This document shows, one piece after another, positions 6,671 to 41,662 of a stretch of DNA of 64,000 nucleotides (position 1 is its first letter; each line of letters begins with the position of its first letter). A model generated the notes under the pieces. That model saw nothing but the letters and a program-made list of their open reading frames with translations. It had not been told where the DNA came from and made no database searches. The translations under genes were made by a program, and so were the position numbers. The stretch is from Nemertoderma westbladi (taxonomy: Eukaryota; Animalia; Xenacoelomorpha): the NCBI GenBank assembly GCA_032718475.1, contig JAUCBJ010001551.1, positions 83,495 to 147,494 on the forward strand. The letters are read 5' to 3'.

Positions 6671-6751
6671 GGAACTTAGAAAACTCAGCGAAGCAAGTCT
6701 GAGTCGCGATCCTGAAGAAGTTTTCGATATTCTAGAAAAACTTGGAGAAGG
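6671..6751 (+). CDS. STK3/STK4: Hippo/MST (STK3/4-like) kinase, coding exon 2 (exon 1 not located)
   Basis: ttgcag|G GAA CTT...GAA GG|gtgggt encodes ELRKLSEASLSRDPEEVFDILEKLGEG, like MST1 QLKKLDEDSLTKQPEEVFDVLEKLGEG; 81 nt. Confidence 0.92.
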
Positions 6752-6832: not shown

Positions 6833-7377
6833 CAACAGTCGGGCCTACCGGTACTACTGTCTTAACAGTCGGGCCTACCGGTACTACTGTCTTAACAGTC
6901 GGGCCTACCGGTACTACTGTCTTAACAGTCGGGCCTACCGGTACTACTGTCTTAACAGTCGGGCCTACCGGTACTACTGTCTTAACAGTCGGGCCTAGGG
7001 GTACTACTGTCTTAACAGTCGGGCCTAGGGGTACTACTGTGTTAACAGTCGGGCCTACCGGTACTACTGTCTTAACAGTCGGGCCTACCGGTACTACTGT
7101 CTTAACAGTCGGGCCTAGGGGTACTACTGTCTTAACAGTCGGGCCTAGGGGTACTACTGTGTTAACAGTCGGGCCTACCGGTACTACTGTCTTAACAGTC
7201 GGGCCTACCGGTACTACTGTCTTAACAGTCGGGCCTACCGGTACTACTGTCTTAACAGTCGGGTCTACCGGTACTACTGTCTTAACAGTCGGGCCTACCG
7301 GTACTACTGTCTTAACAGTCGGGCCTACCGGTACTACTGTCTTAACAGTCGGGCCTACCGGTACTACTGTCTTAACA
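6833..7377. repeat. 30-bp intronic minisatellite (AACAGTCGGGCCTACCGGTACTACTGTCTT), about 18 copies
   Basis: Direct periodicity; lies between Hippo exons 2 and 3. Confidence 0.97.
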
Positions 7378-7499: not shown

Positions 7500-7743
7500 A
7501 GCTTACGGGGCTGTATATAAGGCCATTCATAAAGACACCGGCCATGTGCTCGCCATAAAGATGGTGCCAGTAGATTGCGACCTTCAGGATATAATACGAG
7601 AGATCAGTATCATGCAGCAATGCGACAGTCCGTACATCGTTCGGTATTACGGGTCCTACTTCCAAAAGGTTGATCTCTGGATAGTAATGGAGTTCTGTGG
7701 GGCTGGAAGTATTTCCGATGTTATGAGGCTCAGAAAGAAGGCT
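7500..7743 (+). CDS. STK3/STK4: Hippo/MST kinase exon 3
   Basis: ttaccag|A GCT TAC...AAG GCT|gttagt; AYGAVYKAIHKDTGHVLAIK...DLWIVMEFCGAGSISDVMRLRKKA; 244 nt. Confidence 0.95.
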
Positions 7744-7759: not shown

Positions 7760-10700
7760 CTACTATTGTTATTTTGTTGCTGGTATGGGTTAATTGTTAT
7801 TGGTTACTGGTATATTGGATAATTGTTATTGGTTACTGGTATATGTTAATTGATATTGGTTACTGGTATTTGTTAATTGTTATTGGTTACTGGTATGGGT
7901 TAATTGTTATTGGTTACTGGTATGGGTTAATTGTTATTGGTTACTGGTATATTGGATAATTGTTATTGGTTACTGGTATGTTGGTTAATTGTTATTGGTT
8001 ACTGGTATATGTAAATTAATTATTATTGGTTACTGGTATAGGTTAATTGTTATTTTGTTGCTGGTATGGGTTAATTGTTATTGGTTACTGGTATATGTTA
8101 ATTGATATTGGTTACTGGTATTTGTTAATTGTTATTGGTTACTGGTATGGGTTAATTGTTATTGGTTACTGGTATGGGTTAATTGTTATTGGTTACTGGT
8201 ATATTGGATAATTGTTATTGGTTACTGGTATATGTTATTCGTTATTGGTTTCTGGTATTATGTTATTCGTTATTGGTTACTGGTATATGTTAATTGTTAT
8301 TGGTTACTGGTATGGGTTAATTGTTATTGGTTACTGGTATATGTTATTTGTTATTGGTTACTGGTATTTGTTAATTGTTATTGGTTGCTGGTATGGGTTA
8401 ATTGTTATTGGTTACTGGTATATGTTAATTGTTATTGGTTACTGGTATGGGTTAATTGCAATTGGTTACTGAGATTAATTGTTATTGGTTGGTATGGTGG
8501 TTAATTGTTATTGGCTGTTAGTATAGGTTAATTGTTATTGGTTACTGGTATGTTGGTTAATTGTTATTGGTTACTGGTATAGGTAAATTAATTATTATTG
8601 GTTACTGGTATAGGTTAATTGTTATTGGTTACTGGTATGGGTTAATTGTAATTGGTTACTGAGATTAATTGTTATTGGTTACTGGTATATGTTAATTGTT
8701 ATTGGTTACTGGTATGGGTTAATTGCAATTGGTTACTGAGATTAATTGTTATTGGTTGGTATGGTGGTTAATTGTTATTGGCTGATAGTATAGGTTAATT
8801 GTTATTGGTTACTGGTATGTTGGTTAATTGTTATTGGTTACTGGTATAGGTAAATTAATTATTATTGGTTACTGGTATAGGTTAATTGTTATTGGTTACT
8901 GGTATGGGTTAATTGTAATTGGTTACTGAGATTAATTGTTATTGGTTACTGGTATATGTTAATTATTATTGGTTACTGGTATAGGTTAATTGTTATTGGT
9001 TACTGAGATTAATTGTTATTGGTTACTGGTATATGTTAATTGTTATTGGTTACTGGTATGGGTTAATTGTAATTGGTTACTGAGATTAATTGTTATTGGT
9101 TACTGGTATATGTTAATTATTATTGGTTACTGGTATAGGTTAATTGTTATTGGTTACTGAGATTAATTGTTATTGGTTACTGGTATACGTTAATTGTTAT
9201 TGGTTACTGGTATGGGTTAATTGTAATTGGTTACTGAGATCAATTGTTATTGGTTACTGGTATGGTGGTTAATTGTTATTGGCTGATGGTATAGGTAAAT
9301 TAATTATTATTGGTTACTGGTATAGGTTAATTGTTATTGGTTACTGAGAATAATTGTTATTGGTTACTGGTATATGTAAATTAATTATTATTGGTTACTG
9401 GTATAGGTTAATTGTTATTGGTTAGTGGTATAGGTTAATTGTTATTGGTTACTGGTATGGATTAATTGTAATTGGTTACTGGTATATGTTAATTGATATT
9501 GGTTACTGGTATAGGTTAATTGTTATTGGTTACTGGTATATGGTAATTGTTATTGGTTACTGGTATATGTTAATTGTTATTGGTTACTGGTATATTGGAT
9601 AATTGTTATTGGTTACTGGTATGGGTTAATTGTAATTGGTTACTGGTATGTTGGTTAATTGTTATTGGCTGATGGTATAGGTAAATTAATTATTAATATT
9701 GGTTACTGGTATAGGTTAATTGTTATTGGTTACTGAGAATAATTGTTATTGGTTATTGGTTACTGGTATATGTTAATTGATATTGGTTACTGGTATAGTT
9801 TAATTGTTATTGGTTACTGGTATATGTTAATTGATATTGGTTACTGGTATATGTTAATTGTTATTGGTTACTGGTATATTTTAATTGTTATTGGTTACTG
9901 TTATATGTTAATTGTTATTGGTTACTGGTATGGGTTAATTGTAATTGGTTACTGAGATCAATTGTTATTGGTTACTGGTATGGTGGTTAATTGTTATTGG
10001 CTGATGGTATAGGTAAATTAATTATTATTGGTTACTGGTATAGGTTAATTGTTATTGGTTACTGAGAATAATTGTTATTGGTTACTGGTATATGTAAATT
10101 AATTATTATTGGTTACTGGTATAGGTTAATTGTTATTGGTTAGTGGTATAGGTTAATTGTTATTGGTTACTGGTATGGGTTAATTGTAATTGGTTACTGA
10201 GATCAATTGTTATTGGTTACTGGTATGGTGGTTAATTGTTATTGGCTGATGGTATAGGTAAATTAATTATTATTGGTTACTGGTATAGGTTAATTGTTAT
10301 TGGTTACTGGTATGGGTTAATTGTAATTGGTTACTGAGATCAATTGTTATTGGTTACTGGTATGGTGGTTAATTGTTATTGGCTGATGGTATAGGTAAAT
10401 TAATTATTATTGGTTACTGGTATAGGTTAATTGTTATTGGTTACTGAGAATAATTGTTATTGGTTACTGGTATATGTAAATTAATTATTATTGGTTACTG
10501 GTATAGGTTAATTGTTATTGGTTAGTGGTATAGGTTAATTGTTATTGGTTACTGGTATGGATTAATTGTAATTGGTTACTGGTATATGTTAATTGATATT
10601 GGTTACTGGTATAGGTTAATTGTTATTGGTTACTGGTATATGGTAATTGTTATTGGTTACTGGTATATGTTAATTGTTATTGGTTACTGGTATGGATTAA

Positions 10701-13700
10701 TTGTAATTGGTTACTGGTATATGTTAATTGATATTGGTTACTGGTATAGGTTAATTGTTATTGGTTACTGGTATATGGTAATTGTTATTGGTTACTGTTA
10801 TATGTTAATTGTTATTGGTTACTGGTATAGGTTAATTGTTATTGGTTACTGGTATGTTGGTTAATTGTTATTGGTTACTGGTATAGGTAAATTAATTATT
10901 ATTGGTTACTGGTATAGGTTAATTGTTATTGGTTAGTGGTATAGGTTAATTGTTATTGGTTACTGGTATGGGTTAATTGTAATTGGTTACTGGTATATGT
11001 TAATTGATATTGGTTAATGGTATAGGTTAATTGTTATTGGTTACTGGTATATGGTAATTGTTATTGGTTACTGGTATATGTTAATTGTTATTGGTTACTG
11101 GTATATTGGATAATTGTTATTGGTTACTGGTATAGGTTAATTGTTATTGGTTACTGGTATATGGTAATTGTTATTGGTTACTGGTATAGGTTAATTGTTA
11201 TTGGTTAATGAGATTAATTGTTATTGGTTATTGGTTACTGGTATATGTTAATTGATATTGGTTACTGGTATAGGTTAATTGTTATTGGTTACTGGTATAG
11301 TTTAATTGTTATTGGTTACTGGTATATGTTATTCGTTATTGGTTTCTGGTATTATGTTATTCGTTATTGGTTACTGGTATATGTTAATTGTTATTGGTTA
11401 CTGGTATATGTTAATTGTTATTGGTTACTGGTATATGTTAATTGTTATTGGTTACTGGTATATGTTATTCGTTATTGGTTTCTGGTATTATGTTATTCGT
11501 TATTGGTTACTGGTATATGTTAATTGTTATTGGTTACTGGTATATGTTAATTGTTATTGGTTACTGGTATATGGTAATAGTTATTGGTTACTGGTTACTG
11601 GTATATGTTAATTGTTATTGGTTACTGGTATTATGTTATTCGTTATTGGTTTCTGGTATTATGTTATTCGTTATTGGTTACTGGTATATGTTAATTGATA
11701 TTGGTTACTGGTTACTGGTATATGTTATTCGTTATTGGTTTCTGGTATTATGTTATTCGTTATTGGTTTCTGGTATTATGTTATTCGTTATTGGTTACTG
11801 GTATATGTTAATTGTTATTGGTTACTGGTATATGTTAATTGTTATTGGTTACTGGTATATGTCAATTATTATTGGTTACTGGTATATGTCAATTATTATT
11901 GGTTACTGGTATATGTTAATTGTTATTGGTTACTGGTATAGTTTAATTGTTATTGGTTACTGGTATATGTTAATTGATATTGGTTACTGGTATAGGTTAA
12001 TTGTTATTGGTTACTGGTATATGTTAATTGTTATTGGTTACTGGTATATTTTAATTGTTATTGGTTACTGGTATATGTTAATTGATATTGGTTTCTGGTA
12101 TATGTTAATTGTTATTGGTTACTGGTATAGTTTAATTGTTATTGGTTACTGGTATATGTTAATTGTTATTGGTTACTGGTATGGGTTAATTGTTATTGGT
12201 TACTGGTATATTTTAATTGTTATTGGTTACTGGTATATGTTAATTGTTATTGGTTACTGGTATGGGTTAATTGTTATTGGTTACTGGTATATTTTAATTG
12301 TTATTGGTTACTGGTATATGTTAATTGATATTGGTTACTGGTATAGGTTAATTGTTATTGGTTACTGGTATATTTTAATTGTTATTGGTTACTGTTATAT
12401 GTTAATTGTTATTGGTTACTGGTATGGGTTAATTGTTATTGGTTACTGGTATATGTTAATTGATATTGGTTACTGGTATGGATTAATTGTAATTGGTTAC
12501 TGGTATAGGTTAATTGTTATTGGTTACTGGTATATTTTAATTGATATTGGTTTCTGGTATATGTTAATTGTTATTGGTTACTGGTATGGGTTAATTGTTA
12601 TTGGTTACTGGTATATGTTATTCGTTATTGGTTTCTGGTATTATGTTATTCGTTATTGGTTACTGGTATATGTTAATTGTTATTGGTTACTGGTATATGT
12701 TAATTGATATTGGTTACTGGTATAGGTTAATTGTTATTGGTTACTGGTATATTTTAATTGTTATTGGTTACTGTTATATGTTAATTGTTATTGGTTACTG
12801 GTATAGGTTAATTGTTATTGGTTACTGGTATATTTTAATTGTTATTGGTTACTGTTATATGTTAATTGTTATTGGTTACTGGTATGGGTTAATTGTTATT
12901 GGTTACTGGTATATGTTAATTGATATTGGTTACTGGTATGGATTAATTGTAATTGGTTACTGGTATAGGTTAATTGTTATTGGTTACTGGTATATTTTAA
13001 TTGATATTGGTTTCTGGTATATGTTAATTGTTATTGGTTACTGGTATGGGTTAATTGTTATTGGTTACTGGTATATGTTATTCGTTATTGGTTTCTGGTA
13101 TTATGTTATTCGTTATTGGTTACTGGTATATGTTAATTGTTATTGGTTACTGGTATATGTTAATTGATATTGGTTACTGGTATAGGTTAATTGTTATTGG
13201 TTACTGGTATATTTTAATTGTTATTGGTTACTGTTATATGTTAATTGTTATTGGTTACTGGTATGGGTTAATTGTTATTGGTTACTGGTATATGTTAATT
13301 GATATTGGTTACTGGTATGGATTAATTGTAATTGGTTACTGGTATAGGTTAATTGTTATTGGTTACTGGTATATTTTAATTGATATTGGTTTCTGGTATA
13401 TGTTAATTGTTATTGGTTACTGGTATGGGTTAATTGTTATTGGTTACTGGTATATGTTATTCGTTATTGGTTTCTGGTATTATGTTATTCGTTATTGGTT
13501 ACTGGTATATGTTAATTGTTATTGGTTACTGGTATATGTTAATTGTTATTGGTTACTGGTATATTTTAATTGTTATTTGTTACTGGTATATTTTAATTGT
13601 TATTGGTTACGGGTATATGTTAATTGATATTGGTTACTGGTATAGTTTAATTGTTATTGGTTACTGGTATATTTTAATTGTTATTTGTTACTGGTATATT

Positions 13701-16700
13701 TTAATTGTTATTGGTTACTGTTATATGTTAATTGATATTGGTTACTGGTATATGTTAATTGTTATTGGTTACTGGTATGGGTTAATTGTTATTGGTTACT
13801 GGTATATGTTAATTGATATTGGTTACTGGTATAGGTTAATTGTTATTGGTTACTGGTATATTTTAATTGATATTGGTTTCTGGTATATGTTAATTGTTAT
13901 TGGTTACTGGTATGGGTTAATTGTTATTGGTTACTGGTATATGTTAATTGATATTGGTTACTGGTATAGGTTAATTGTTATTGGTTACTGGTATATGTTA
14001 TTCGTTATTGGTTTCTGGTATTATGTTATTCGTTATTGGTTACTGGTATATGTTAATTGTTATTGGTTACTGGTATATGTTAATTGTTATTGGTTACTGG
14101 TATATGTTAATTGTTATTGGTTACTGGTATATGTTATTCGTTATTGGTTTCTGGTATTATGTTATTCGTTATTGGTTACTGGTATATGTTAATTGTTATT
14201 GGTTACTGGTATATGTTAATTGTTATTGGTTACTGGTATATGGTAATAGTTATTGGTTACTGGTTACTGGTATATGTTAATTGTTATTGGTTACTGGTAT
14301 ATGTTATTCGTTATTGGTTTCTGGTATTATGTTATTCGTTATTGGTTTCTGGTATTATGTTATTCGTTATTGGTTACTGGTATATGTTAATTGATATTGG
14401 TTACTGGTTACTGGTATATGTTATTCGTTATTGGTTTCTGGTATTATGTTATTCGTTATTGGTTTCTGGTATTATGTTATTCGTTATTGGTTACTGGTAT
14501 ATGTTAATTGTTATTGGTTACTGGTATATGTTAATTGTTATTGGTTACTGGTATATGTCAATTATTATTGGTTACTGGTATATGTCAATTATTATTGGTT
14601 ACTGGTATATGTTAATTGTTATTGGTTACTGGTATAGTTTAATTGTTATTGGTTACTGGTATATGTTAATTGTTATTGGTTACTGGTATATGTCAATTAT
14701 TATTGGTTACTGGTATATGTTAATTGATATTGGTTACTGGTATAGGTTAATTGTTATTGGTTACTGGTATATGTTAATTGTTATTGGTTACTGGTATATT
14801 TTAATTGTTATTGGTTACTGGTATATGTTAATTGATATTGGTTTCTGGTATATGTTAATTGTTATTGGTTACTGGTATATGGTAATTGTTATTGGTTACT
14901 GGTATATGTTAATTGATATTGGTTACTGGTATAGGTTAATTGTTATTGGTTACTGGTATATTTTAATTGTTATTGGTTACTGTTATATGTTAATTGTTAT
15001 TGGTTACTGGTATGGGTTAATTGTTATTGGTTACTGGTATATGTTAATTGATATTGGTTACTGGTATAGGTTAATTGTTATTGGTTACTGGTATATTTTA
15101 ATTGATATTGGTTTCTGGTATATGTTAATTGTTATTGGTTACTGGTATGGGTTAATTGTTATTGGTTACTGGTATATGTTAATTGATATTGGTTACTGGT
15201 ATAGGTTAATTGTTATTGGTTACTGGTATATGTTAATTGATATTGGTTACTGGTATATGTTAATTGTTATTGGTTACTGGTATATTTTAATTGTTATTTG
15301 TTACTGGTATATTTTAATTGTTATTGGTTACTGGTATATGTTAATTGATATTGGTTACTGGTATAGTTTAATTGTTATTGGTTACTGGTATATTTTAATT
15401 GTTATTTGTTACTGGTATATTTTAATTGTTATTGGTTACTGGTATATGTTAATTGATATTGGTTACTGGTATATGTTAATTGTTATTGGTTACTGGTATG
15501 GGTTAATTGTTATTGGTTACTGGTATATGTTAATTGATATTGGTTACTGGTATAGGTTAATTGTTATTGGTTACTGGTATATTTTAATTGATATTGGTTT
15601 CTGGTATATGTTAATTGTTATTGGTTACTGGTATGGGTTAATTGTTATTGGTTACTGGTATATGTTAATTGATATTGGTTACTGGTATAGGTTAATTGTT
15701 ATTGGTTACTGGTATATGTTAATTGATATTGGTTACTGGTATATGTTAATTGTTATTGGTTACTGGTATATTTTAATTGTTATTTGTTACTGGTATATTT
15801 TAATTGTTATTGGTTACTGGTATATGTTAATTGATATTGGTTACTGGTATAGTTTAATTGTTATTGGTTACTGGTATATTTTAATTGTTATTTGTTACTG
15901 GTATATTTTAATTGTTATTGGTTACTGGTATATGTTAATTGATATTGGTTACTGGTATAGGTTAATTGTTATTGGTTACTGGTATATTTTAATTGTTATT
16001 TGTTACTGGTATATTTTAATTGTTATTGGTTACTGGTATATGTTAATTGATATTGGTTACTGGTATAGTTTAATTGTTATTGGTTACTGGTATATGTTAA
16101 TTGTTATTTGTTACTGGTATATTTTAATTGTTATTGGTTACTGGTATATGTTAATTGATATTGGTTACTGGTATAGGTTAATTGTTATTGGTTACTGGTA
16201 TATTTTAATTGTCATTTGTTACTGGTATATTTTAATTGTTATTGGTTACTGGTATATGTTAATTGATATTGGTTACTGGTATAGGTTAATTGTTATTGGT
16301 TACTGGTATATTTTAATTGTTATTTGTTACTGGTATATTTTAATTGTTATTGGTTACTGGTATATGTTAATTGATATTGGTTACTGGTATAGTTTAATTG
16401 TTATTGGTTACTGGTATATTTTAATTGTTATTTGTTGCTGGTATATTTTAATTGTTATTGGTTACTGGTATATGTTAATTGATATTGGTTACTGGTATAG
16501 GTTAATTGTTATTGGTTACTGGTATATTTTAATTGTTATTGGTTACTGGTATATGTTAATTGATGTTGGTTACTGGTATAGTTTAATTGTTATTGGTTAC
16601 TGGTATATGTTAATTGATATTGGTTACTGGTATAGGTTAATTGTTATTGGTTACTGGTATATTTTAATTGTTATTTGTTACTGGTATATTTTAATTGTTA

Positions 16701-17007
16701 TTGGTTACTGGTATATGTTAATTGATATTGGTTACTGGTATAGGTTAATTGTTATTGGTTACTGGTATATTTTAATTGTTATTTGTTACTGGTATATTTT
16801 AATTGTTATTGGTTACTGGTATATGTTAATTGATATTGGTTACTGGTATAGGTTAATTGTTATTGGTTACTGGTATATTTTAATTGTTATTTGTTACTGG
16901 TATATTTTAATTGTTATTGGTTACTGGTATATGTTAATTGATGTTGGTTACTGGTATAGTTTAATTGTTATTGGTTACTGGTATAGGTTATTTGTTATTG
17001 GTCACTG
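7760..17007. repeat. About 9.2-kb, 27-bp intronic satellite (TTAATTGTTATTGGTTACTGGTATATG) with variant units and block duplications
   Basis: Fills almost all of the intron between exons 3 and 4; roughly 340 units. Confidence 0.97.
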
Positions 17008-17072: not shown

Positions 17073-17237
17073 TTGAGTGAAGAAGAAATCTCATCTGTTT
17101 TGCTGAGTACCCTAAAGGCATTAGAATACCTCCACTTTATGCGGAAGATTCACAGAGACATAAAGGCCGGTAACATCCTCCTTAACGTGCGGGGAGAGGC
17201 GAAACTTGCCGATTTCGGAGTCGCTGGTCATTTAGCA
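17073..17237 (+). CDS. STK3/STK4: Hippo/MST kinase exon 4
   Basis: ttttag|TTG AGT GAA...TTA GCA|gtttag; contains IHRDIKAGNILL and KLADFG; 165 nt. Confidence 0.95.
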
Positions 17238-17458: not shown

Positions 17459-17665
<207 letters not shown>

Positions 17666-17889
17666 TAGGAGGACAATCATATTATTTTATGTGCATCTCT
17701 AGGGCCGGATTTAGGTTGTGGGAGGCCCCAGGCCAAACTTTGTGATAGGGAAACTGATAGTAATTGATCACCACCAAACATCATTTATCTCTAACTTAAA
17801 GTATATTAACCTCGAACGAAGCGAGCGAAATTTTTTTACACGTTATTCAGCATTGGAAATTTGAAATGGAGTGGATTTTCTCTGTTAAG

Positions 17890-18075
17890 GGCTGGGAGCC
17901 CCTCCGGTTCGGAGGAAGGGTCCCTCCGGCTGGGAGCCCCTCCGGTTGGGAGCCCCTCCGGCTGCGAGCCCCTCCGGCTGGGAGCCCCTCCGGCTGGGAG
18001 CCCCTCCGGCTGCGAGCCCCTCCGGCTGGGAGCCCCTCCGGCTGGGAGCCCCTCCGGCTGGGAGCCCCTCCGGTT
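17890..18075. repeat. GC-rich 16-bp tandem repeat (GGGAGCCCCTCCGGCT)
   Basis: About 10 direct copies inside the hAT-like element. Confidence 0.9.
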
Positions 18076-18100
18076 CGGAGGCCCATATTCCGGCCCTCTA

Positions 18101-19376
18101 CATCCACGAAGCTAAGGAAAATCAACTACTTTCGCTAAGAAAAATTTTCCTTAGCTGAGATGGTCTATTCATAGTGGGCTATTTTACTTGTATGGGTCAG
18201 ATTTGGTTTTTTTTTGACCCCCGGCAAATCTAGCCTTTAAAAGTACCCTGAAATTTTGCATGTATATACTACTCGTCGAGGCGCATCTTTTGGGCCGGGT
18301 CTCATATCCAGGAAAAATCTGGTTTCCATGGCAACGGACTTAGAAAAAAGTCTATGTGTTTCAAGTCAATATTTATAACTCTATTTGTAGGAAAACTATA
18401 ATACATATAAACTTGGGGTTTCTCAACTCAACTATAAGGTCCATAGCAGAGCCGATTGAGGTTCAATAGAAAATCCAGTTGCCTTGGCAACCGGGCTAGA
18501 CAGATGTTAAAATTTACAAAATGTTAATTTGAAGCCTAAGGAGAAGGTGTTATGTCTTGGGACCAACCCCTACCCCCACTATGTGACTTATTCTGCGTCC
18601 GAATTTCATTGTTTAATTTTGCAGTTACCATGACAACCGCTGAAAACAGATGTTTTTATACAAAAATAACTCATTTGGACATAGACTTCGCGATAAAATT
18701 TTACGAAACTGGATATGTGTTATCTGGACCATTAGTTGGAACTTTTAGTGAAACTGAAAACATTCCAGAAATATCTTGTTACCATGGTAACTGGAGTTTA
18801 TTAAAGTCTAAATCATTCAAGTCTAAATTCAATACTCTATTTGTAGCAAAATAATGTAATAAATATAAATTTGGGGTTTTGCAACTCATCTGTAAGGTCC
18901 ATATACAATCCATTCGAGGTTAATTACACAATCCAATTACCATAGCAACAAGACTATTAAACACATGTTAAAATTTCTAAAATGATAATTTAAAACACAA
19001 GTTAATAGTATTATGACTTGGGACCAAGACCTACCCCCATTATATGACTTATTCTGCATCCGAATTACATTGTTCTATTTTTCAGTTTCCATGACAACCA
19101 CTGCAAACAGATGCATTTTGATAGAAAATCGGTAATTTGGACATAAACTACAATATTTTCTGAAACTTGGTATGTGTTATCTGAACCACAATCTGGACTG
19201 AATCTTTTTTCAAAGGTAAAACCAACAGTTCCAGAGAATTCTAGTTTCCATGGGAATATAAGTTATTTATTGGCAAATGCTACTAAACTAGGCTAAGCAA
19301 CAAACCAAATTGTGGCCCTTTGTTAAATTTTCCTTAGCTTCGTGGTTGCATTTCCTTTAGGAAATGCCTTTCTAGT
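18101..19376 (+). mobile_element. Non-autonomous Helitron/Helentron-like element
   Basis: Subterminal inverted repeat CCACGAAGCTAAGGAAAAT / ATTTTCCTTAGCTTCGTGG, 3' hairpin GCATTTCC-TTTA-GGAAATGC followed by CTAGT; diverged internal ~480-bp duplication. Confidence 0.65.
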
Positions 19377-19517
19377 ACTATATTTCCCAAAATATAATTT
19401 AATAATGTTTATTAATATAATAGGTAATTAAAATATTTTGTTATAATAATAATAATTAAAAAAATAATTTACTTATTTTTTTATTTTAAATTTATTGTAT
19501 TTTTTATGGGAAGCACC

Positions 19518-20337
19518 CATAGCGTGCTCTATTAAAGGCCTTGCAAACGTGCAGCCTTCAATATTTATGGAGGCTGGATTATAACCGCTAGCGTACTGCT
19601 TTACTGTGTGTGTGCAGGCATGGGGAGAGTTCTATAAATTTTCATTTGCCGCAATTTGGTCAATGGACGTAATTGAAGTCTCCTCGTTAAGGAAGATACT
19701 AGATTTTATGGTAGATAGTGTTTTAGGTAGGTTTGGCTAGTAATTTCAACACTGGTTCCGATATCCTACTTCCTTCTATAAATATTTTATAGTAGCTAGT
19801 TTTTATTTCCATTTGTATAGAAAATGTTCCAGAACATGTTAGCTATTAATTTTTAAAAAAATTATGTTCTAGAATAAATATTTTTGTTTAGAAAAAAATC
19901 TGGATTTGATTTAAAACGCATGGAATTGTTATAAAACGTGTTTAAAATCAATAAAAAATATTGTGAAAAAATTTAATTGAAAAAAAAATTTTGAAATTTT
20001 TTGTTTATTGATTTTAAACACGTTTTCGAACGATTCCATGCGTTTTAAATCGAATCCAGATTTTTTCTAAAAAATGTTCTAGAACAAAAAATATTTGTTC
20101 TAGAACATAATTTTTTAAAAATGAATAGCTAACATAGCTAACCATAAAATTTAGTATCTTGCTTAAAACGAGGAGGCTTCAATTACGTCCATTAACCAAA
20201 TTGCAACAAATGAAAATTTATAAAGCTCTCCCCATGCCTGCACAAACACAGTACAGCAGTACGCTGCCGGTTATAATCCAGCCTCCATAAATTATGAAGG
20301 CTGCACGCTTACAAGGCCTTTAATAGAGTACACTATG
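19518..20337. mobile_element. Foldback MITE (P- or hAT-like), nearly fully palindromic
   Basis: Termini CATAGCGTGCTCTATTAAAGG / CCTTTAATAGAGTACACTATG; perfect 8-bp TSD GAAGCACC (19510-19517, 20338-20345); long inverted arms. Confidence 0.88.
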
Positions 20338-20494
20338 GAAGCACCCTAGATATGGGAGGCCTTAGGCCACGGTCTAGCTGGCCTAAGCCTAAATCCGGCT
20401 ATGTCCATCTCCCGACTGCTGATGTGCACCCCCCCCCCCCCCCCCCCCCTCCACATCCAGGATGTTATTTAACAACGAAGCCCCAGCGCTGCAG

Positions 20495-23400
20495 TTTGTT
20501 TTACTTTATTTGTTACTCAGGCCATCTTTATAATCCCCAGTTTGTATTACTTTATTTGTTACCCAGGCCATCTTTATGATCCCCAGTTTGTATTACTTTA
20601 TTTGTTACCCAGGCCATCTTTATAATCCCCAGTTTGTATTACTTTATTTGTTACCCAGGCCATCTTTATGATCCCCAGTTTGTATTACTTTATTTGTTAC
20701 TCAGGCCATCTTTATGATCCCCAGTTTTTATTACTTTATTTGTTACCCAGGCCATCTTTATGATCCCTAGTTTGTATTACTTTATTTGTTACCCAGGCCA
20801 TCTTTATGATCCCCAGTTTGTATTACTTTATTTGTTACTCAGGCCATCTTTATGATCCCCAGTTTGTATTACTTTATTTTTACCCAGGCCATCTTTATGA
20901 TCCCCAGTTTGTATTACTTTATTTGTTACTCAGGCCATCTTTATGATCCCCAGTTTGTATTACTTTATTTTTACCCAGGCCATCTTTATGATCCCCAGTT
21001 TGTATTACTTTATTTGTTACTCAGGCCATCTTTATGATCCCCAGTTTGTATTACTTTATTTTTACCCAGGCCATCTTTATGATCCCCAGTTTGTATTACT
21101 TTATTTGTTACCCAGGCCATCTTTATGATCCCCAGTTTGTATTACTTTATTTGTTACTCAGGCCATCTTTATGATCCCCAGTTTGTATTACTTTATTTGT
21201 TACTCAGGCCATCTTTATGATCCCCAGTTTGTATTACTTTATTTGTTACCCAGGCCATCTTTATGATCCCCAGTTTGTATTACTTTATTTGTTACCCAGG
21301 CCATCTTTATGATCCCCAGTTTGTATTACTTTATTTGTTACTCAGGCCATCTTTATGATCCCCAGTTTGTATTACTTTATTTGTTACTCAGGCCATCTTT
21401 ATGATCCCCAGTTTGTATTACTTTATTTGTTACCCAGGCCATCTTTATGATCCCCAGTTTGTATTACTTTATTTGTTACTCAGGCCATCTTTATGATCCC
21501 CAGTTTGTATTACTTTATTTGTTACCCAGGCCATTTTTATGATACCCAGTTTGTATTACTTTATTTTTACCCAGGCCATCTTTATGATCCCCAGTTTGTA
21601 TTACTTTATTTGTTACCCAGGCCATCTTTATGATCCCCAGTTTGTATTACTTTATTTGTTACTCAGGCCATCTTTATGATCCCCAGTTTGTATTACTTTA
21701 TTTGTTACCCAGGCCATCTTTATGATCCCCAGTTTGTATTACTTTATTTGTTACCCAGGCCATCTTTATGATCCCCAGTTTGTATTACTTTATTTGTTAC
21801 CCAGGCCATCTTTATGATCCCCAGTTTGTATTACTTTATTTGTTACTCAGGCCATCTTTATGATCCCCAGTTTGTATTACTTTATTTGTTACTCAGGCCA
21901 TCTTTATGATCCCCAGTTTGTATTACTTTATTTGTTACCCAGGCCATCTTTATGATCCCCAGTTTGTATTACTTTATTTGTTACTCAGGCCATCTTTATG
22001 ATCCCCAGTTTGTATTACTTTATTTGTTACTCAGGCCATCTTTATGATCCCCAGTTTGTATTACTTTATTTGTTACTCAGGCCATCTTTATGATCCCCAG
22101 TTTGTATTACTTTATTTGTTACCCAGGCCATCTTTATGATCCCCAGTTTGTATTACTTTATTTGTTACTCAGGCCATCTTTATGATCCCCAGTTTGTATT
22201 ACTTTATTTGTTACCCAGGCCATTTTTATGATCCCCAGTTTGTATTACTTTATTTTTACCCAGGCCATCTTTATGATCCCCAGTTTGTATTACTTTATTT
22301 GTTACCCAGGCCATCTTTATGATCCCCAGTTTGTATTACTTTATTTGTTACCCAGGCCATCTTTATGATCCCCAGTTTGTATTACTTTATTTGTTACCCA
22401 GGCCATCTTTATGATCCCCAGTTTGTATTACTTTATTTGTTACCCAGGCTATCTTTATTATCCCCAGTTTGTATTACTTTATTTGTTACCCAGGCCATCT
22501 TTATGATCCCCAGTTTGTATTACTTTATTTGTTACCCAGGCCATCTTTATGATCCCCAGTTTGTATTACTTTATTTGTTACCCAGGCCATCTTTATGATC
22601 CCCAGTTTGTATTACTTTATTTGTTACCCAGGCCATCTTTATGATCCCCAGTTTGTATTACTTTATTTGTTACCCAGGCCATCTTTATGATCCCCAGTTT
22701 GTATTACTTTATTTATTACTCAGGCCATCTTTATGATCCCCAGTTTGTATTACTTTATTTGTTACCCAGGCCATCTTTATGATCCCCAGTTTGTATTACT
22801 TTATTTGTTACTCAGGCCATCTTTATGATCCCCAGTTTGTATTATATTTTATTGGTTACCCAGGCCATCTTTATGATCCCCAGTTTGTATTACTTTATTT
22901 GTTACCCAGGCAGGCCATCTTTATGATCCCCAGTTTGTATTACTTTATTTGTTACCCAGGCAGGCCGGCCATCTTTATGATCCCCAGTTTGTATTACTTT
23001 ATTTGTTACCCAGGCCATCTTTATGATCCCCAGTTTGTATTACTTTATTTGTTACCCAGGCCATCTTTATGATCCCCAGTTTGTATTACTTTATTTGTTA
23101 CCCAGGCCATCTTTATGATCCCCAGTTTGTATTACTTTATTTGATACCCAGGCCATCTTTATGATCCCCAGTTTGTATTACTTTATTTGTTACCCAGGCC
23201 ATCTTTATGATCCCTAGTTTGTATTACTTTATTTGTTACCCAGGCCATCTTTATGATCCCCAGTTTGTATTACTTTATTTGTTACCCAGGCCATCTTTAT
23301 GATCCCTAGTTTGTATTACTTTATTTGTTACTCAGGCCATCTTTATGATCCCCAGTTTGTATTACTTTATTTGTTACCCAGGCCATCTTTATGATCCCTA

Positions 23401-24598
23401 GTTTGTATTACTTTATTTGTTACTCAGGCCATCTTTATGATCCCCAGTTTGTATTACTTTATTTGTTACCCAGGCCATCTTTATGATCCCCAGTTTGTAT
23501 TACTTTATTTGTTACTCAGGCCATCCGTATGATCCCCAGTTTGTATTACTTTATTTGTTACCCAGGCCATCTTTATGATCCCCAGTTTGTATTACTTTAT
23601 TTGTTACCCAGGCCATCTTTATGATCCCCAGTTTGTATTACTTTATTTGTTACCCAGGCCATCTTTATGATCCCCAGTTTGTATTACTTTATTTGTTACC
23701 CAGGCCATCTTTATGATCCCCAGTTTGTATTACTTTATTTGTTACCCAGGCCATCTTTATCATCCCCAGTTTGTATTACTTTATATGTTACCCAGGCCAT
23801 CTTTATGATCCCCAGTTTGTATTACTTTATTTGTTACCCAGGCCATCTTTATTATCCCCAGTTTGTATTACTTTGTTTGTTACCCAGGCCATCTTTATGA
23901 TCCCCAGTTTGTATTACTTTATTTGTTACCCAGGCCATCTTTATGATCCCCAGTTTGTATTACTTTATTTGTTACCCAGGCCATCTTTATGATCCCCAGT
24001 TTGTATTACTTTATTTGTTACCCAGGCCATCTTTATGATCCCCAGTTTGTATTACTTTATTTGTTACTCAGGCCATCTTTATGATCCCCAGTTTGTATTG
24101 CTTTATTTGTTACTCAGGCCATCCGTATGATCCCCAGTTTGTATTACTTTATTTGTTACCCAGGCCATCTTTATGATCCCCAGTTTGTATTACTTTATTT
24201 GTTACTCAGGCCATCTTTATGATCCCCAGTTTGTATTGCTTTATTTGTTACTCAGGCCATCCGTATGATCCCCAGTTTGTATTACTTCATTTGTTACCCA
24301 GGCCATCTTTATGATCCCCAGTTTGTATTGCTTTATTTGTTACTCAGGCCATCCGTATGATCCCCAGTTTGTATTACTTTATTTGTTACCCAGGCCATCT
24401 TTATGATCCCCAGTTTGTATTACTTTATTTGTTACCCAGGCCATCTTTATGATCCCCAGTTTGTATTACTTTATTTGTTACTCAGGCCTTCTTTATGATC
24501 CCCAGTTTGTATTACTTTATTTATTACCCAGGCCATCTTTATGATCCCCAGTTTGTATTAATTTATTTGTTACTCAGGCCATCTTTATGATCCCCAGT
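20495..24598 (+). repeat. 46-bp tandem array made of the exon-6 splice acceptor plus the first 20 nt of exon 6, about 89 copies
   Basis: Unit tttgtattactttatttgttacycag|GCCATCTTTATGATCCCCAG; the last copy runs into the real exon (AIFMIPSKPPP). Confidence 0.97.
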
Positions 24599-24715
24599 AA
24601 ACCTCCACCTGTGTTAACTGATCGCGACAAATGGTCAAATGAGTTTAACGATTTCTTATCGAAATGTTTGGTAAAAGACCAAGACGATCGAAGTACAGCT
24701 ACAATGCTGTTACAG
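24578..24715 (+). CDS. STK3/STK4: Hippo/MST kinase exon 6
   Basis: actcag|GCC ATC TTT ATG ATC CCC AGT AAA CCT...TTA CAG|gtattt; AIFMIPSKPPPVLTDRDKWSNEFNDFLSKCLVKDQDDRSTATMLLQ; 138 nt. Confidence 0.95.
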
Positions 24716-25597
24716 GTATTTTCTGTTATTCATATCGATATATCGGGTTTTGTACAATAATATTTATATGTCCTGGAATTAAGGGGGGAGGATGGGGGGG
24801 GGGGGGGGGGGGGGGGGGGGTAGCGGACTGGTTAGCTGGTCTATACCCCCTTCCTCGTAATATTTTCAAAAATTTTGTTTTTTGTTTCATCTAGAGCAGA
24901 ATTTCACGAGGATCTCAAATCTGAAAACTATTTAGCGAGATATCCTGTAGTTCTCGTGGTGTCGCTATTTTTCCATACGATGTTCTGTCCGTCAAATTGT
25001 ACGACATACAGACCAACGACAAACAGACTAGATGCCGGCAAACATTATAACTGACATCGGAAATGAAATCAACGACCCCGAAAAAACCCCGTATTGAAAA
25101 GTTTAACTCAGTGGTTTAACTGTATTTAACGCTCTTCCTTCGTGCCGGCAGTGATTAACCAACCAGACCCCAGGCAGCCAGTTTTGTGCGGGAATGTTTA
25201 AAATAATATCAGAATGACATTTTTCAAATTACTATTCCTCCGTTATTTTTAACAGATTTTCTTTACTTTAGGCTCTTGTTCTTCCGAAAGTGTTTCGGTA
25301 GATCTTATGGAATTTTGATAAATATTTTTACATTTTGTTTAATTACCCGATTTTAATTAAAATTAAGTTAAAATCGTTATAATTAATTAATTAAATTTAA
25401 AATGGCTATTTGGAGATTCTATATAACTTTCGTATATTCGATGGCGCAGAGCCAAAAAGCTGGTTCAATAAATTAGGGGAACGATTGGGGGAGTAGTAGA
25501 GGGGGTAGCAATAACTTTCAAATTATTGTCTAGAGGCTATTTGGCCTTCCATGCAGCTGGTTGACATTGATAAAATATCCATATTTATTCTTCACAG

Positions 25598-25702
25598 CAT
25601 CCATTCGTTCGGAATGCCAAATCACCCACCCAGTCATTGACGGCAATGCTAAATGAAGCTCGACTCGTTAAAGAAACATTATCTAACCAATCAGACGAAT
25701 CG
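25598..25702 (+). CDS. STK3/STK4: Hippo/MST kinase exon 7
   Basis: tcacag|CAT CCA TTC GTT...GAA TCG|gtgagt; HPFVRNAKSPTQSLTAMLNEARLVKETLSNQSDES; 105 nt. Confidence 0.9.
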
Positions 25703-26506
25703 GTGAGTATAAAGAAGCATTATCTAACCAATCAGACGAATCGGTGAGTATAAAGAAATATTATCTAACCAATCAGACGAAATCGGTGAGTATAAAGAAA
25801 TATTATCTAACCAATCAGACGAATCGATGAGTTTAAATAAATATTATCTAACCAATCAGACGAATCGGTGAGTATAAAGAAATATTATGTAACCAATCAG
25901 ATGAATCAGTGAGTTTAAATAAATATTATCTAACCAATCAGACGAATCGGTGAGTATAAAGAAATATTATCTAACCAATCAGATGAATCGGTGAGTTTAA
26001 ATAAATATAATCTAACCAATCAGATGAATCGGTGAGTTTAACGAAACATTATCTAACCAATCAGACGAATCGATGAGTTTAAATAAATATTATCTAACCA
26101 ATCAGATGAATCGGTGAGTTTAACGAAACATTATCTAACCAATCAGACGAATCGATGAGTTTAAATAAATATTATCTAACCAATCAGACGAATCGGTGAG
26201 TATAAAGAAATATTATGTAACCAATCAGATGAATCAGTGAGTTTAAATAAATATTATCTAACCAATCAGACGAATCGGTGAGTATAAAGAAATATTATCT
26301 AACCAATCAGATGAATCGGTGAGTTTAAATAAATATAATCTAACCAATCAGATGAATCGGTGAGTTTAACGAAACATTATCTAACCAATCAGACGAATCG
26401 ATGAGTTTAAATAAATATTATCTAACCAATCAGATGAATCGGTGAGTTTAACGAAACATTATCTAACCAATCAGACGAATCGGTGGGTATTAAGAAATAT
26501 TATCTC
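25670..26506 (+). repeat. 41-bp tandem array made of the last 33 nt of exon 7 plus the splice donor, about 20 copies
   Basis: Unit AAAGAAACATTATCTAACCAATCAGACGAATCG|gtgagtat; the first copy is the coding exon end. Confidence 0.95.
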
Positions 26507-26609
26507 ACGTCTGAGGACTCGATATGAGGCTATGACTGTAAAGTCTGTGAATATTTATTTATTCATTGTACATTATACTTTATGTGTAACCGACTCATTT
26601 ATTTCATGA

Positions 26610-26836
26610 ATGTATGGTGTTGATGGTGTATGGTGTATGAGTGTATGGTGTATGAGTGTATGGTGTATGAGTGTATGGTGTATGAGTGTATGGTGTTGAG
26701 TGTATGGTGTATGGTGTATGGTGTATGAGTGTATGGTGTATGAGTGTATGAGTGTATGGTGTGGTGTATGGTGTTGATGGTGTATGAGTGTATGGTGTGG
26801 TGTATGGTGTTGATGGTGTATGAGTGTATGGTGTTG
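26610..26836. repeat. (TGTATGG/TGTATGAG)n simple repeat
   Basis: Mixed 7-8 nt units, intronic. Confidence 0.9.
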
Positions 26837-26874
26837 ATTAATACAAACATATTCTATGTTGTTATTATTTTTAG

Positions 26875-27016
26875 GACGACGAACCTGATGGAACAATGCG
26901 ACCATCTAATCCTGACAATGATGAAGTTGATGGTCCTGAAGACGACGACATTGCTAGCGATCTGGGTACTATGGTTATTAACAGTGACGATGAAGAAGAT
27001 GAGTCTACAATGAAAC
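26875..27016 (+). CDS. STK3/STK4: Hippo/MST kinase exon 8 (acidic linker)
   Basis: ttttag|GAC GAC GAA...ATG AAA C|gtcagt; SDLGTMVINSDDEEDESTMK matches MST1 SQLGTMVINAEDEEEEGTMK; 142 nt. Confidence 0.92.
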
Positions 27017-27199
27017 GTCAGTTTATCTGGTTTACTTTACTTTACTTTAATACTTTATTTTCTGGGCTTTGTACCAAATAATGCAGCACCTGATTTATTT
27101 ACTTCTCTTTAATACTTTATTTTATGTACCAAGTAATTATTCAGCACCTGATTTATTTACTTCCTGGTATATATCTAATATACAACTACTACCAAAATA

Positions 27200-29722
27200 A
27201 ATGAATAAAGGCATAAAGAATAAATGCATAAAACACATTCTGAATGCTTTCTGCCTATCGTGCCAACTGCACGACCACAGAAGCCATGTTGGATCAAGGC
27301 ATCGGAATATCAACTCTCCGGGTATAGGTCTTATACAGACCAGCTGCTACGGGAAATCCCTTTGCCGTTCGAGTCTGTGTCGTGTCAGGATGTTCATTGT
27401 ACTAACGAGGGTCACATCGCGGATTTGACTGAGTATTATACCCGTATACAGTCGTTGCTCCTACGTTGTATTCCTTGTACAAAGAGTATCGACTGATGAT
27501 TCTCATAATGTTCCCGGATGGAATGATGAAGTTGAACATTTGCATCGAATAGCGCGAATCCTTCCTCGACGGGCGGTCAAGTGGAAGTCCTCGGGAAGGT
27601 CTCCCGTCTCGCTTAATGTCAACAACACGGGTACAATTTAAACGCCGACTCCGGTCAATAAAGCGCAACTCCGATAAGATAAAATCTGATCGTATCGCAA
27701 AAGATTTGTACGATAAATACTGTTACTGTTATAAATTTTGGTCCAAGGTACGGCGTTTAAATAAGCAACAGGTACCACTTCCCCCAACCGTGAATGCTGT
27801 ACTAATAATGAATATAATGAGTACTGAATACTACGAAGGTATCTTTAATATGTTCCCTCGAGAAACCGAGTCTGAATCTCCTAAACCGACTTACAAGGAC
27901 GCGTTTAAGGATATCAAATATGGGGCCGATATGATAATCAAAGCTTCCAAGATAACTGATTCAATCACGAAATTGAGTGCAATAAGGCGGTGGGACCGGA
28001 TAACTTAACAGCTGCACATATTAAGTTTGCCAGTAGCCGCATAGTCACGTGTTTATCTTTGTTATTTAGTGCTTGTAATGTACACGGTGTCCTCCCTAAT
28101 AACCTTATACCGGTCATAACCCGGATAATTAAGGACCAATGCGGTGACATAAAGGACAAGTCTAATTATAGGCCCATATCTATGAGTAATATAATTTGTA
28201 AGGTCCTCGAGCACTTATTTTTATCACGAGTCGAGTCTTCCTTGAACACAACTGATAATCAATTTGGTTTCAAGAAAGGCTCTGGTACAGAACTGTGTGT
28301 GTACACTATAAGGAAATTATTAACTACTGTATTACCTACAACACGGTAATAATGTTTACGTTTATTTTCTGGATGCTTCAAAGGCTTTCGATTGTGTACA
28401 AGTACAACATTCATTATTATTTAAGAAAATTAATTAAGACTAATGTGCCGTTTTTTATTATTCGTATTTTGTCATACATGTATTGCAATCAGTACATGTA
28501 TGTTAAATGGGATGTGGGATGGGCAATTGACATGCCTTACGTTGTTTTAACTGTTCCAACAGTGTCAAACAGGGAAGTCATTTGTCACCGATTTTATTCA
28601 ACTATTTCATAATTATTATTATTATTAACATACACGAGCCGAGGCTCGGTACAGCGTACGTACAACAACAAAAGAAAAACACAAAAAAAGAAGAAGCACA
28701 ATAATGGCCATGGACACTAAAACTAAAAGTATTAAATTGAATACAAACAGAAGAAAGTCATATAGTAACGAAAGGAGTAACCAGTTCTAAGCACTTGACA
28801 CGTAGTCATAATATAAACATTTTATTTCATCCTAACTGAATAAATTAAGTCTTGAACTAACAGACTCTGAATTAGGTTGTATTTTGAATGGCTCGGTAAT
28901 AAATCTGATTTATGCCGATGACATTTGCCTAATTTCAATAAATCCGTGTTCCTTACAGTCTATGATTAATATTAATATATGATATGTGTTGACTTTGTTG
29001 CTAATAATATGGCATTCAATGCTATAAAACAGAGTGTATGTTTTTCCAGAGTAAATTGCGTAACCGTGTAATTATGGCACCTACCTTAAACTTGGACGTT
29101 AAAAGTTTATCTTTTGTAAGCACTTTTAAGTACTTGGGCCATAAGATTTCCTCTGACTTCTCTGATGATATTGACTTACAGAATCAAACGCGATTATTTT
29201 ACTGTAGGCCAATTGATTAATTAGGCAGTTCAGTAACTGTTCTATCAATGTTAAGAAAGTGCTATTTACCTCTTACTGCTCAACAATTTATTGCTGTTCA
29301 CTTTGGTCCGACTTATATTTTCTACAATCGAATTTTAATAAATTACACGTAGCGATTAATAAATGCGTTAGATCACTGTTTCATATTAAAGTATATAATA
29401 GGGACACTGATGAAATTACTAAGTACAAGTCAAATGTTGGTTAATTTAAATATTCGTTCCCTTAAGGGAATTTTTAGACTACCCTATCCCTTTTTAGCTT
29501 GCATAATCGTATAAATTTGTCTTCGAGCTCTATCTTAATTTGTGTCCGAAATACTTGTTGTGCGAAATCAACTATGTACCATACTTTTAAACGATGGTGC
29601 CGATAACTATTTTTGAGTATATTTTATTAATGTTTTTATTTTATTTTATTGTAATTTGTGCCATTAATTTTAGATATGACCATGTTTTGGTTGAAATAAA
29701 TAAATAAATAAATAAAAATAAA
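27200..29722 (+). mobile_element. Decayed non-LTR retrotransposon (LINE) reverse transcriptase in a Hippo intron
   Basis: Frameshifted motifs GPDNL, NYRPIS, NQFGFK, FLDASKAFD, VKQG..LSP, YADD, FKYLG; (AAAT)n tail at about 29695-29722. A ~210-bp insert at 28611-28822 is flanked by TATTTCAT direct repeats. Confidence 0.88.
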
Positions 29723-29807
29723 ATTAACAGTGAAATATACACCGATGTTGTGATGACCACCAACTTTATTTTAACATCATTATACATCTTTATAATATTT
29801 CTTGTAG

Positions 29808-29906
29808 GTTATGACACACAAGATGCCGATTCATCTCCTGGTGTGGCTCCTTATATGGAACAATTTGGGGATAATGCCGATACTCTAACTTCTAAAAATA
29901 GTTCAG
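29808..29906 (+). CDS. STK3/STK4: Hippo/MST kinase exon 9
   Basis: ttgtag|GT TAT GAC...TCA G|gtttat; phase 1/1 fits both neighbours; RYDTQDADSSPGVAPYMEQF resembles MST PSFLEYF; 99 nt. Confidence 0.82.
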
Positions 29907-30090
29907 GTTTATTATACACACTAGCTATTTAGACATATATGCCTACTGTCACACTCACTCACATTCAATCACACTCACACTACAGCAGTTATTAATTTTC
30001 CCTTTCAATTAGTCGTTGATCGGTTGAAAAATATGTGTGTATTAATTTTATAGTTATGTACCGTACGTGTCTATCTATCTATCTATCTTT

Positions 30091-31179
30091 ATGGTATATT
30101 ATTACTTTTGGTTTTTATTTAGGTGACAGTGGTACAGTTGTTGTAATGGTATATTATTAGTTTTGGTTTTTATTTAGGTGACAGTGGTACACAGTTGTCA
30201 TGGTATATTATTACTTTTGGTTTTTAAATAGGTGACAGTGGTACAGTTGTTCTAATGGTATATTATTAGTTTTGGTTTTTATTTAGGTGACAGTGGTACA
30301 GTTGTTGTAATGGTATATTATTACTTTTGGTTTTTATTTAGGTGACAGTGGTACAGTTGTTGTAATGGTATATTATTACTTTTGGTTTTTATTTAGGTGA
30401 CAGTGGTACAGTTGTTGTAATGGTATATTATTACTTTTGGCTTTTATTTAGGTGACAGTGGTACAGTTGTTGTAATGGTATATTATTAGTTTTGGTTTTT
30501 ATTTAGGTGACAGTGGTACACAGTTGTCATGGTATATTATTACTTTTGGTTTTTATTTAGGTGACAGTGGTACAGTTGTTGTAATGGTATATTATTACTT
30601 TTGGTTTTTAAATAGGTGACAGTGGTACAGTTGTTGTAATGGTATATTATTACTTTTGGTTTTTATTTAGGTGACAGTGGTACAGTTGTTGTAATGGTAT
30701 ATTATTACTTTTGGTTTTTATTTAGGTGACAGTGGTACAGTTGTTGTAATGGTATATTATTACTTTTGGTTTTTATTTAGGTGACAGTGGTACAGTTGTA
30801 ATGGTATATTATTACTTTTGGTTTTTATTTAGGTGACAGTGGTACAGTTGTTGTAATGGTATATTATTAGTTTTGGTTTTTATTTAGGTGACAGTGGTAC
30901 ATTTGTTGTAATGGTATATTATTACTTTTGGTTTTTATTTAGGTGACAGTGGTACAGTTGTAATGGTATATTATTACTTTTGGTTTTTATTTAGGTGACA
31001 GTGGTACAGTTGTTGTAATGGTATATTATTACTTTTGGTTTTTATTTAGGTGACAGTGGTACAGTTGTTGTAATGGTATATTATTACTTTTGGTTTTTAT
31101 TTAGGTGACAGTGGTACAGTTGTAATGGTATATTATTACTTTTGGTTTTTATTTAGGTGACAGTGGTACAGTTGTTGTA
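30091..31179 (+). repeat. 55-bp (some 52-bp) tandem array made of the exon-10 acceptor plus exon start, about 20 copies
   Basis: Unit ggtatattattacttttggtttttatttag|GTGACAGTGGTACAGTTGTTGTAAT; the last copy continues as the exon. Confidence 0.95.
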
Positions 31180-31284
31180 GTAGAAGGATCCACTGAATAT
31201 TCTGGCAATGCAGCCGTCCACGAATCCAATATGGGAATGGATCCGGAAGATTTTCAAAAAGTTACTGAAAGTGATTTCAACTTC
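31157..31284 (+). CDS. STK3/STK4: Hippo/MST kinase exon 10
   Basis: atttag|GT GAC AGT GGT...AAC TTC|gtaagt; ends ESDFNF like MST DGDYEF; 128 nt, phases consistent. Confidence 0.85.
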
Positions 31285-31399: not shown

Positions 31400-31564
31400 A
31401 TAAAGAATCTTTCAGTGGAAGCTGTTAAACGACGAATCTTGTCTCTGGATGGCCACATGGAGGCTGAGATTGAGAAACTGCGGCGCAGATATCAGGCTAA
31501 ACGTCAACCTATTTTAGACGCCATCAGCGCGAAATTATATCGGCCCTACGAAATAAAAACTTAG
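31400..31564 (+). CDS. STK3/STK4: Hippo/MST kinase terminal exon, SARAH domain
   Basis: ttctag|ATA AAG AAT...; IKNLSVEAVKRRILSLDGHMEAEIEKLRRRYQAKRQPILDAISAK...TAG. Confidence 0.95.
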   Translation: MKNLSVEAVKRRILSLDGHMEAEIEKLRRRYQAKRQPILDAISAKLYRPYEIKT

Positions 31565-31575
31565 TTGTCGCTTGT

Positions 31576-31666
31576 AACACCAAGCCGCTCGGAACACCAA
31601 GCCGCTCGGAACACCAAGCCGCTCGGAACACCAAGCCGCTCGGAACACCAAGCCGCTCGGAACACA
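31576..31666. repeat. 17-bp tandem repeat (AACACCAAGCCGCTCGG) x5 in the Hippo 3' UTR
   Basis: Direct copies just after the stop codon. Confidence 0.9.
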
Positions 31667-41268: not shown

Positions 41269-41662
41269 CCGGGTGTTCCATAATGATCCCCCCCCCCCCC
41301 TGGCCAGCCAAAACTGCCAGACACGCACCTTAGTGTAATATATCATTCGAAAGATAATTTAATTCTGAGCTTGCATGCAAAAATTTAGGGTCCAATACAA
41401 AAGTATAAAAATTGTATAGGCTATTCTTTAAACCTATCTTACTTCCAATATTTTATTTAATCACAATTAAAAAAAAATATAATTTATCCAGCGTTAGTCA
41501 TCAGTGACTTTGTTTGTATACTTTTGTAATGGACCCTAAATTTTTGCATGCAAGCTCAGAATTAAATTATCTTTCGAATGATATATTACACTAAGGTGCA
41601 TGTCTCGCAGTTTTCGCTGGCCAGGGGGGGGGGGGGGGGGGGAATCATTATGTAACACCCGG
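41269..41662. mobile_element. Tc1/mariner-type MITE
   Basis: TA|CCGGGTGTT...AACACCCGG|TA with about 130-bp inverted arms and TA target duplication. Confidence 0.88.

Follow-up and report, generated by a model that had tools for sequence, protein, structure and literature searches.

The STK3/4 gene

A stretch of 64,000 nucleotides from the xenacoelomorph Nemertoderma westbladi (assembly GCA_032718475.1, contig JAUCBJ010001551.1, positions 83,495 to 147,494 of the forward strand; the whole stretch is called the window) carries an STK3/4 (Hippo/MST) kinase gene in which three tandem arrays run across exon-intron junctions. Ten exons were found between 6671 and 31564 on the + strand, all with GT-AG splice signals; spliced together they give 477 codons with zero internal stops:

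6671..6751, + strand, STK3/4 exon 2 (nominal), from the splice model and homologue alignment
7500..7743, + strand, STK3/4 exon 3, kinase, from the splice model and Pkinase
17073..17237, + strand, STK3/4 exon 4, kinase, from the splice model and Pkinase
17492..17659, + strand, STK3/4 exon 5, kinase, from the splice model and Pkinase
24578..24715, + strand, STK3/4 exon 6, from the splice model and homologue alignment
25598..25702, + strand, STK3/4 exon 7, from the splice model and homologue alignment
26875..27016, + strand, STK3/4 exon 8, from the splice model and homologue alignment
29808..29906, + strand, STK3/4 exon 9, from the splice model and homologue alignment
31157..31284, + strand, STK3/4 exon 10, from the splice model and homologue alignment
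31400..31564, + strand, STK3/4 exon 11, SARAH domain and stop codon, from the splice model and Mst1_SARAH

The numbering 2-11 is nominal because exon 1 was not located; 17 weak ATG-to-donor candidates lie in 3380-6660, none of them convincing. Exons 3-5 match Pkinase in Pfam and exon 11 matches Mst1_SARAH (PF11629, E 1.4e-20), while exon 6 searched alone gave zero Pfam matches; the PDB matches of exon 11 are the SARAH domains of STK3/STK4. Aligned with STK3/hippo proteins (120 homologues fetched, the best at 56% identity), the spliced product shows no gap over the kinase domain, including the junction crossed by the first of the arrays. The closest STK3 matches of the exons are proteins of distant animals at ~73-80% identity. 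The two features that define STK3/4 are thus both present, an N-terminal Ste20-type kinase domain whose best named matches are STK3/hippo and a SARAH domain at the C-terminus, and the intact coding sequence over exons 2-11 that an original prediction had proposed for this stretch is found. The gene spans 24.9 kb, 16.2 kb of which is tandem array; with the arrays collapsed and transposon-like inserts removed, its nine introns measure 101-295 nt.

Arrays across three splice junctions

Arrays were called with Tandem Repeats Finder (TRF) on the 64-kb window. Three of those in STK3/4 cross a splice junction:

20492..24598, + strand, array 1, 46-bp unit, 89.1 copies, 96% matches (TRF)
25668..26505, + strand, array 2, 41-bp unit, 20.4 copies, 89% matches (TRF)
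30091..31179, + strand, array 3, 55-bp unit, 20.0 copies, 94% matches (TRF)

The unit of array 1 joins 26 nt of the end of intron 5 to the first 20 nt of exon 6 and so presents 89 acceptors (87 matched directly, 2 more within one 150-nt interval), the last of which, at 24578, is the genuine one and the other 88 are spare. Its copies fall into at least 21 distinct unit types, interspersed, with 17 distinct substitutions over the 46 positions. Array 2 repeats ~35 nt of the end of exon 7 together with the donor, the genuine donor being the first (25703); 16 of its 20 donor positions read GT, the genuine one included, and four have changed to AT, which leaves 15 of the 19 spares intact, some others being weakened. 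It holds an exact 8-unit block twice, 25827-26154 being identical to 26155-26482 (328 bp). The unit of array 3 consists of 32 nt of the end of intron 9 and the first 23 nt of exon 10 (AG/GT, the slash marking the splice site), and among its 20 acceptors, whose units show 6 distinct substitutions, the last (31157) is genuine and 19 are spare.

The arrays are real and cross real junctions of an intact STK3/4 frame. One terminal copy per array belongs to a complete exon within the open reading frame, and the AG or GT signal is kept in 88 of 88, 15 of 19 and 19 of 19 spare copies of arrays 1, 2 and 3, for a total of 122 intact spare splice sites (88 + 15 + 19). The original prediction thus had the anatomy right: it described three unrelated arrays (46 bp x about 89, 41 bp x about 20 and 55 bp x about 20) over two acceptors and one donor of the gene, only the exon-proximal copy being attached to the full exon, and more than 100 decoy splice sites.

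Array 1 is bracketed by two complementary tracts, a poly-C tract at 20428-20449 before it and a poly-G tract at 24783-24820 after exon 6; both are probably transposon-derived since like tracts sit in an inverted-repeat element at 41267-41664.

Other arrays and mobile elements

Tandem arrays make up 21.5 kb of the window, about one third of it. Four further arrays, absent from the original prediction, lie within STK3/4, so that three of its seven arrays cross a junction and four do not. These four, and the insert that contains one of them, are:

6834..7377, no strand assigned, 30-bp x18 array in intron 2, crosses no junction (TRF)
7765..17007, no strand assigned, 27-bp x340 array filling intron 3, crosses no junction (TRF)
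17922..18084, no strand assigned, 16-bp x10 array within the inverted-repeat element of intron 5, crosses no junction (TRF)
26606..26834, no strand assigned, 7-bp x30 array in intron 7, crosses no junction (TRF)
17702..20401, no strand assigned, insert resembling a transposon, with terminal inverted repeats of 12 bp and an inverted-repeat element nested within it, accounting for most of intron 5 outside the arrays (repeat analysis)

The 27-bp array has enlarged intron 3 from ~113 nt (collapsed) to 9.3 kb; it has a strong T/G skew, and its 9-codon unit gives rise to long spurious open reading frames (ORFs). Past the gene's coding end, a perfect 17-bp x5 array (31576-31665) starts 12 nt downstream of the Hippo stop, in what is presumably the 3' UTR. 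Short microhomologies of 4-5 bases flank array 1, the 30-bp array and the 17-bp array.

Dispersed repeats contain arrays as well. A 63-bp array at 3853-4706 (~14 copies) is an internal piece of a repeat resembling a short interspersed element (SINE), which is present in two copies of opposite orientation, 3699-4706 and 52043-52293, the second (~52043-52293) having a single unit; ARAGORN found zero tRNAs in the 64-kb window. Another dispersed repeat has pieces in common with a 68-bp array. Because arrays arise within dispersed repeats, amplification is not junction-specific and its seeds are arbitrary.

At the edge of the window a 50-bp array of 68 copies (1-3379) extends past the window start; CAG/GTAATT follows a pyrimidine tract in six copies, and 61 have CAC/GTAATT. 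Possibly this is a fourth array over a junction, perhaps that of the missing exon-1 donor (phase 2 fits), with mostly weakened copies and its first copy outside the window.

Elsewhere, intron 8 is, by eye, mostly a decayed stretch resembling a long interspersed element (LINE). The region 45900-64000 consists of decayed retroelements, into one of which a LINE reverse-transcriptase ORF (49998-51191, RVT_1) is inserted; we take the retroelement fragments there, from their appearance, to be of the BEL/Pao kind, and 60387-62045 gave zero Pfam matches. Near the intron-rich Hippo gene lies an intronless p38 MAP kinase ORF (38390-39490, + strand, 366 aa), whose best matches, in distant animals, show ~60-69% identity and which is possibly a retrocopy or a case of intron loss. 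A single 599-aa ORF with RhoGEF and PH domains, apparently intronless as well, occupies 41868-43667 on the - strand.

Spare sites and the choice of acceptor

Every spare site leads to a truncated product when the splicing is computed. Array 1 alternatives all stop early (90 of 90 other AG/G sites and 88 of 88 internal AGs, with products of 225-319 aa), as do those of array 2 at 19 of 19 positions (314 or 359 aa) and of array 3 at 19 of 19 (392-417 aa); in none of the three arrays does a spare-site product reach the SARAH exon in frame. In-frame, protein-extending isoforms made through spare sites are therefore ruled out, none occurring among the alternatives computed. Masking of the spare sites by RNA structure was also rejected: folds of five stretches gave z scores of -1.24 to +1.32, none of the five being significant.

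The branch-point consensus is YTRAY. A match lies in branch-point range at 6 of the 10 genuine STK3/4 acceptors. The genuine array-1 acceptor, that of exon 6, has one at -17, and 0 of the 90 other array-1 sites has one in range; 5 of the 132 possible single changes in the array-1 unit would create the motif. This difference is a lead only, since it was noticed post hoc and the edge copies of an array diverge anyway.

The original prediction saw in the arrays a conflict with scanning for the first AG after a branch point. Each acceptor copy has a short pyrimidine tract of its own, so the first-AG rule is not necessarily broken, selection being between entire 3' splice sites; the other half of the argument stands, in that a working gene requires some rule that prefers the copy attached to the exon.

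Relation to known boundary-spanning repeats

Tandem repeats over exon-intron boundaries, at 5' or 3' ends, have been described in lancelets as "mirages", in the globins BflGb6 and BflGb9, Adh3, troponin C and PGBD5, the last with two such repeats of 60 and 108 bp; in the passages of these reports their units are 10-160 bp long, many copies keep AG or GT, the boundary copies escape homogenisation, and both normal splicing and length instability are reported (PMC3087553, PMC3902484). The STK3/4 arrays resemble them in that the units (46, 41 and 55 bp) fall within this range and contain intron plus exon sequence, and the AG or GT is mostly kept. They differ in copy number, 89 in array 1 against 3-6 given for BflGb6, and in that normal splicing and length instability were shown for the mirages whereas the STK3/4 arrays are known from the sequence of a single haplotype.

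In human genes, arrays with a variable number of tandem repeats (VNTRs) lie over donor boundaries in F7 IVS7, 6-16, CBS IVS13, LAMIN B2 and PDGF, and in F7 mammalian cells splice only at whichever identical donor lies most upstream, a rule of oriented scanning (PMC1557585). Array 2 shares this layout, the genuine donor coming first and near-identical spares following (15 here, 4-25 in the human cases described). The five human cases are all donor arrays, whereas two of the three STK3/4 arrays are acceptor arrays, and the scanning rule was shown in mammalian cells. The closest parallel to arrays 1 and 3 is a 68-bp duplication of the junction between intron 7 and exon 8 of CBS that is spliced at the distal site, the passage terming the sites donors despite that junction (PMC2630376). 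There too the distal, exon-attached copy of the intron end and exon start is preferred, but the CBS duplication has two copies and arrays 1 and 3 have 20-89.

At the level of sequence, the STK3/4 arrays show all four features of boundary-spanning minisatellites (mirage or F7-type VNTR), a class whose described members, as the passages have it, leave normal splicing largely intact. The STK3/4 arrays depart from those cases in scale, with 89 copies where the published passages give 3-25, and in the presence of two acceptor arrays in one gene. The literature searched, mostly without subscription papers, contained no genome-wide survey of junction-spanning arrays, and the passages of PMC10078293 that were available do not describe them.

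Origin and splicing of the arrays

Generic local tandem amplification probably made all three, as minisatellites of the mirage type that are spliced out with the introns as near-neutral passengers, one complete exon being kept in each case; we give this a probability of about 0.65. A stretch of 16-68 bp would be duplicated, often between short microhomologies, and would then grow by slippage or unequal exchange, a process that appears to have struck at least 13 places in the window, the insides of dispersed repeats included. Wholly exonic arrays would be purged, and junction-crossing arrays would survive by leaving one full exon. Since the native introns are only ~100-300 nt long, many seeds cross a junction.

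As to splicing, by analogy with the F7, CBS and lancelet data the most upstream donor would win in the donor array. In the acceptor arrays the last copy may be favoured through exon definition, since only the last copy joins the rest of the exon and a downstream donor; in array 1 it may be helped by the better branch point. The ~120 spare sites would then probably be ignored, and leaky use of the nearest ones would give the premature stops computed above and hence, likely, nonsense-mediated decay.

Several points weigh against this account. The boundaries of array 3 show no clear microhomology. Its genuine acceptor has no YTRAY and matches most spares exactly in its intron part, and one spare has a better motif. 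Spare sites may not be silent: the nearest array-1 spares would define exons of 184 and 230 nt and the nearest array-3 spares exons of 180 and 235 nt, all ordinary sizes, and 216 nt, as much as in a native intron, separate the exon-9 donor from the first array-3 spare, so that some leak is likely and silence is not guaranteed. According to the published passage, human 6-16 and CBS in fact use the two nearest spare donors (PMC1557585). Finally, the number of junction arrays is itself high under one of the null models, in which each unit length was placed randomly in the collapsed gene, wholly exonic positions being disallowed. With the whole of the collapsed intron DNA as target, transposon-derived DNA being demonstrably seedable, the expectation is 0.24-0.48 junction arrays out of 7, with P(>=3) of 0.001-0.008. 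With transposon DNA left out, insert borders being set partly by eye, it is 0.92-1.75 out of 6, with P(>=3) of 0.04-0.23, a result that favours the generic account.

These figures bear most directly on the alternative that amplification favours exon-intron junctions or native transcribed introns, through a process such as transcription- or splicing-coupled damage repaired by slippage, with junction arrays over-produced. Besides the lower of the two P ranges, it is favoured by an imbalance in seeding, six arrays having arisen in the ~1.6 kb that is native intron and one in the ~5.8 kb of intron inserts that resemble transposons, and by the several such loci reported in passages on lancelets (PMC3087553, PMC3902484). 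The imbalance speaks for some bias but could be explained by insert age, younger inserts having had less time for seeding; arrays occur within dispersed repeats too; and the window was picked after the fact, for showing the pattern. Because both null models are defensible and the window was so chosen, junction-biased amplification is neither shown nor excluded. The proposal of the original prediction, that junctions are preferentially amplified, is accordingly not established, with only three of the seven gene arrays crossing one and P ranging from 0.001 to 0.23 with the null. We regard such a bias as unlikely, though the three explanations that follow are weaker still.

Stepwise removal of array 3 could coexist with generic amplification: exon 9 would be joined to a spare acceptor, regenerating a CAG/GTGA donor for a further splice to a later copy. 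Recursive-splicing ratchet points read AG/GT. The array-3 acceptors have AG/GTGAC in 20 of 20 copies and would thus regenerate a donor, exon 9 ends in CAG, and the first spare stands at the native intron distance already given. The intron is short, however, and the genuine exon 10 regenerates the same donor, from which re-splicing would skip the exon out of frame. Recursive splicing, which the original prediction offered as a rule of tolerance for the decoys, therefore suits the sequence of array 3 and does not fit array 1, where AG/GC follows an exon ending in CGA; we consider it improbable.

That the arrays are assembly artefacts, or that the gene copy is dead and decayed by them, is more doubtful again. 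The arrays are known from the assembly, array 2 contains the exact 328-bp duplication, and exon 1 was not located; but the many interspersed unit variants of array 1 are as in true minisatellites, each of the ten exons is open and canonically bounded, and the kinase and SARAH motifs are conserved.

Least probable by our estimate, and without support, is the earlier suggestion that copy number is a selected rheostat tuning Hippo output through nonsense-mediated decay: the premature stop at every spare site, which such a coupling would need, is the default because the unit lengths are not multiples of three; the AG, lost in 0 of the 88 + 19 spare acceptors, is expected by chance to be untouched because substitutions are few, variation among the units of arrays 1 and 3 being too low to show any selective maintenance; GT is gone from 4 of the 19 spare donors, with others weakened; and as only the nearest one or two spares are involved in the known cases, in the passage describing them (PMC1557585), distant copies should add little.

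Implications

The STK3/4 gene of N. westbladi carries a case of a described repeat class that is unusual for its size, with three arrays in one gene and 89 acceptor copies in one of them; none of the observations points to a regulatory role in Hippo signalling. The published mechanistic work, in the passages considered, concerns donor arrays, and arrays 1 and 3 pose the harder acceptor case, array 1 with a single-base branch-point difference. A genome-wide excess at junctions, if true, would tie the birth sites of minisatellites to splicing or transcription. Tentatively, and with no great expectation that it will hold, growth of an acceptor array to ~90 copies may require that the repeated copy first lose the branch-point consensus, the genuine last copy keeping it, in addition to an amplification that in this animal prefers splice junctions or native introns. 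If so, the genome would be a natural allelic series for 3' splice-site choice among dozens of near-identical sites, including cases like array 3 in which the genuine site carries no intronic mark.

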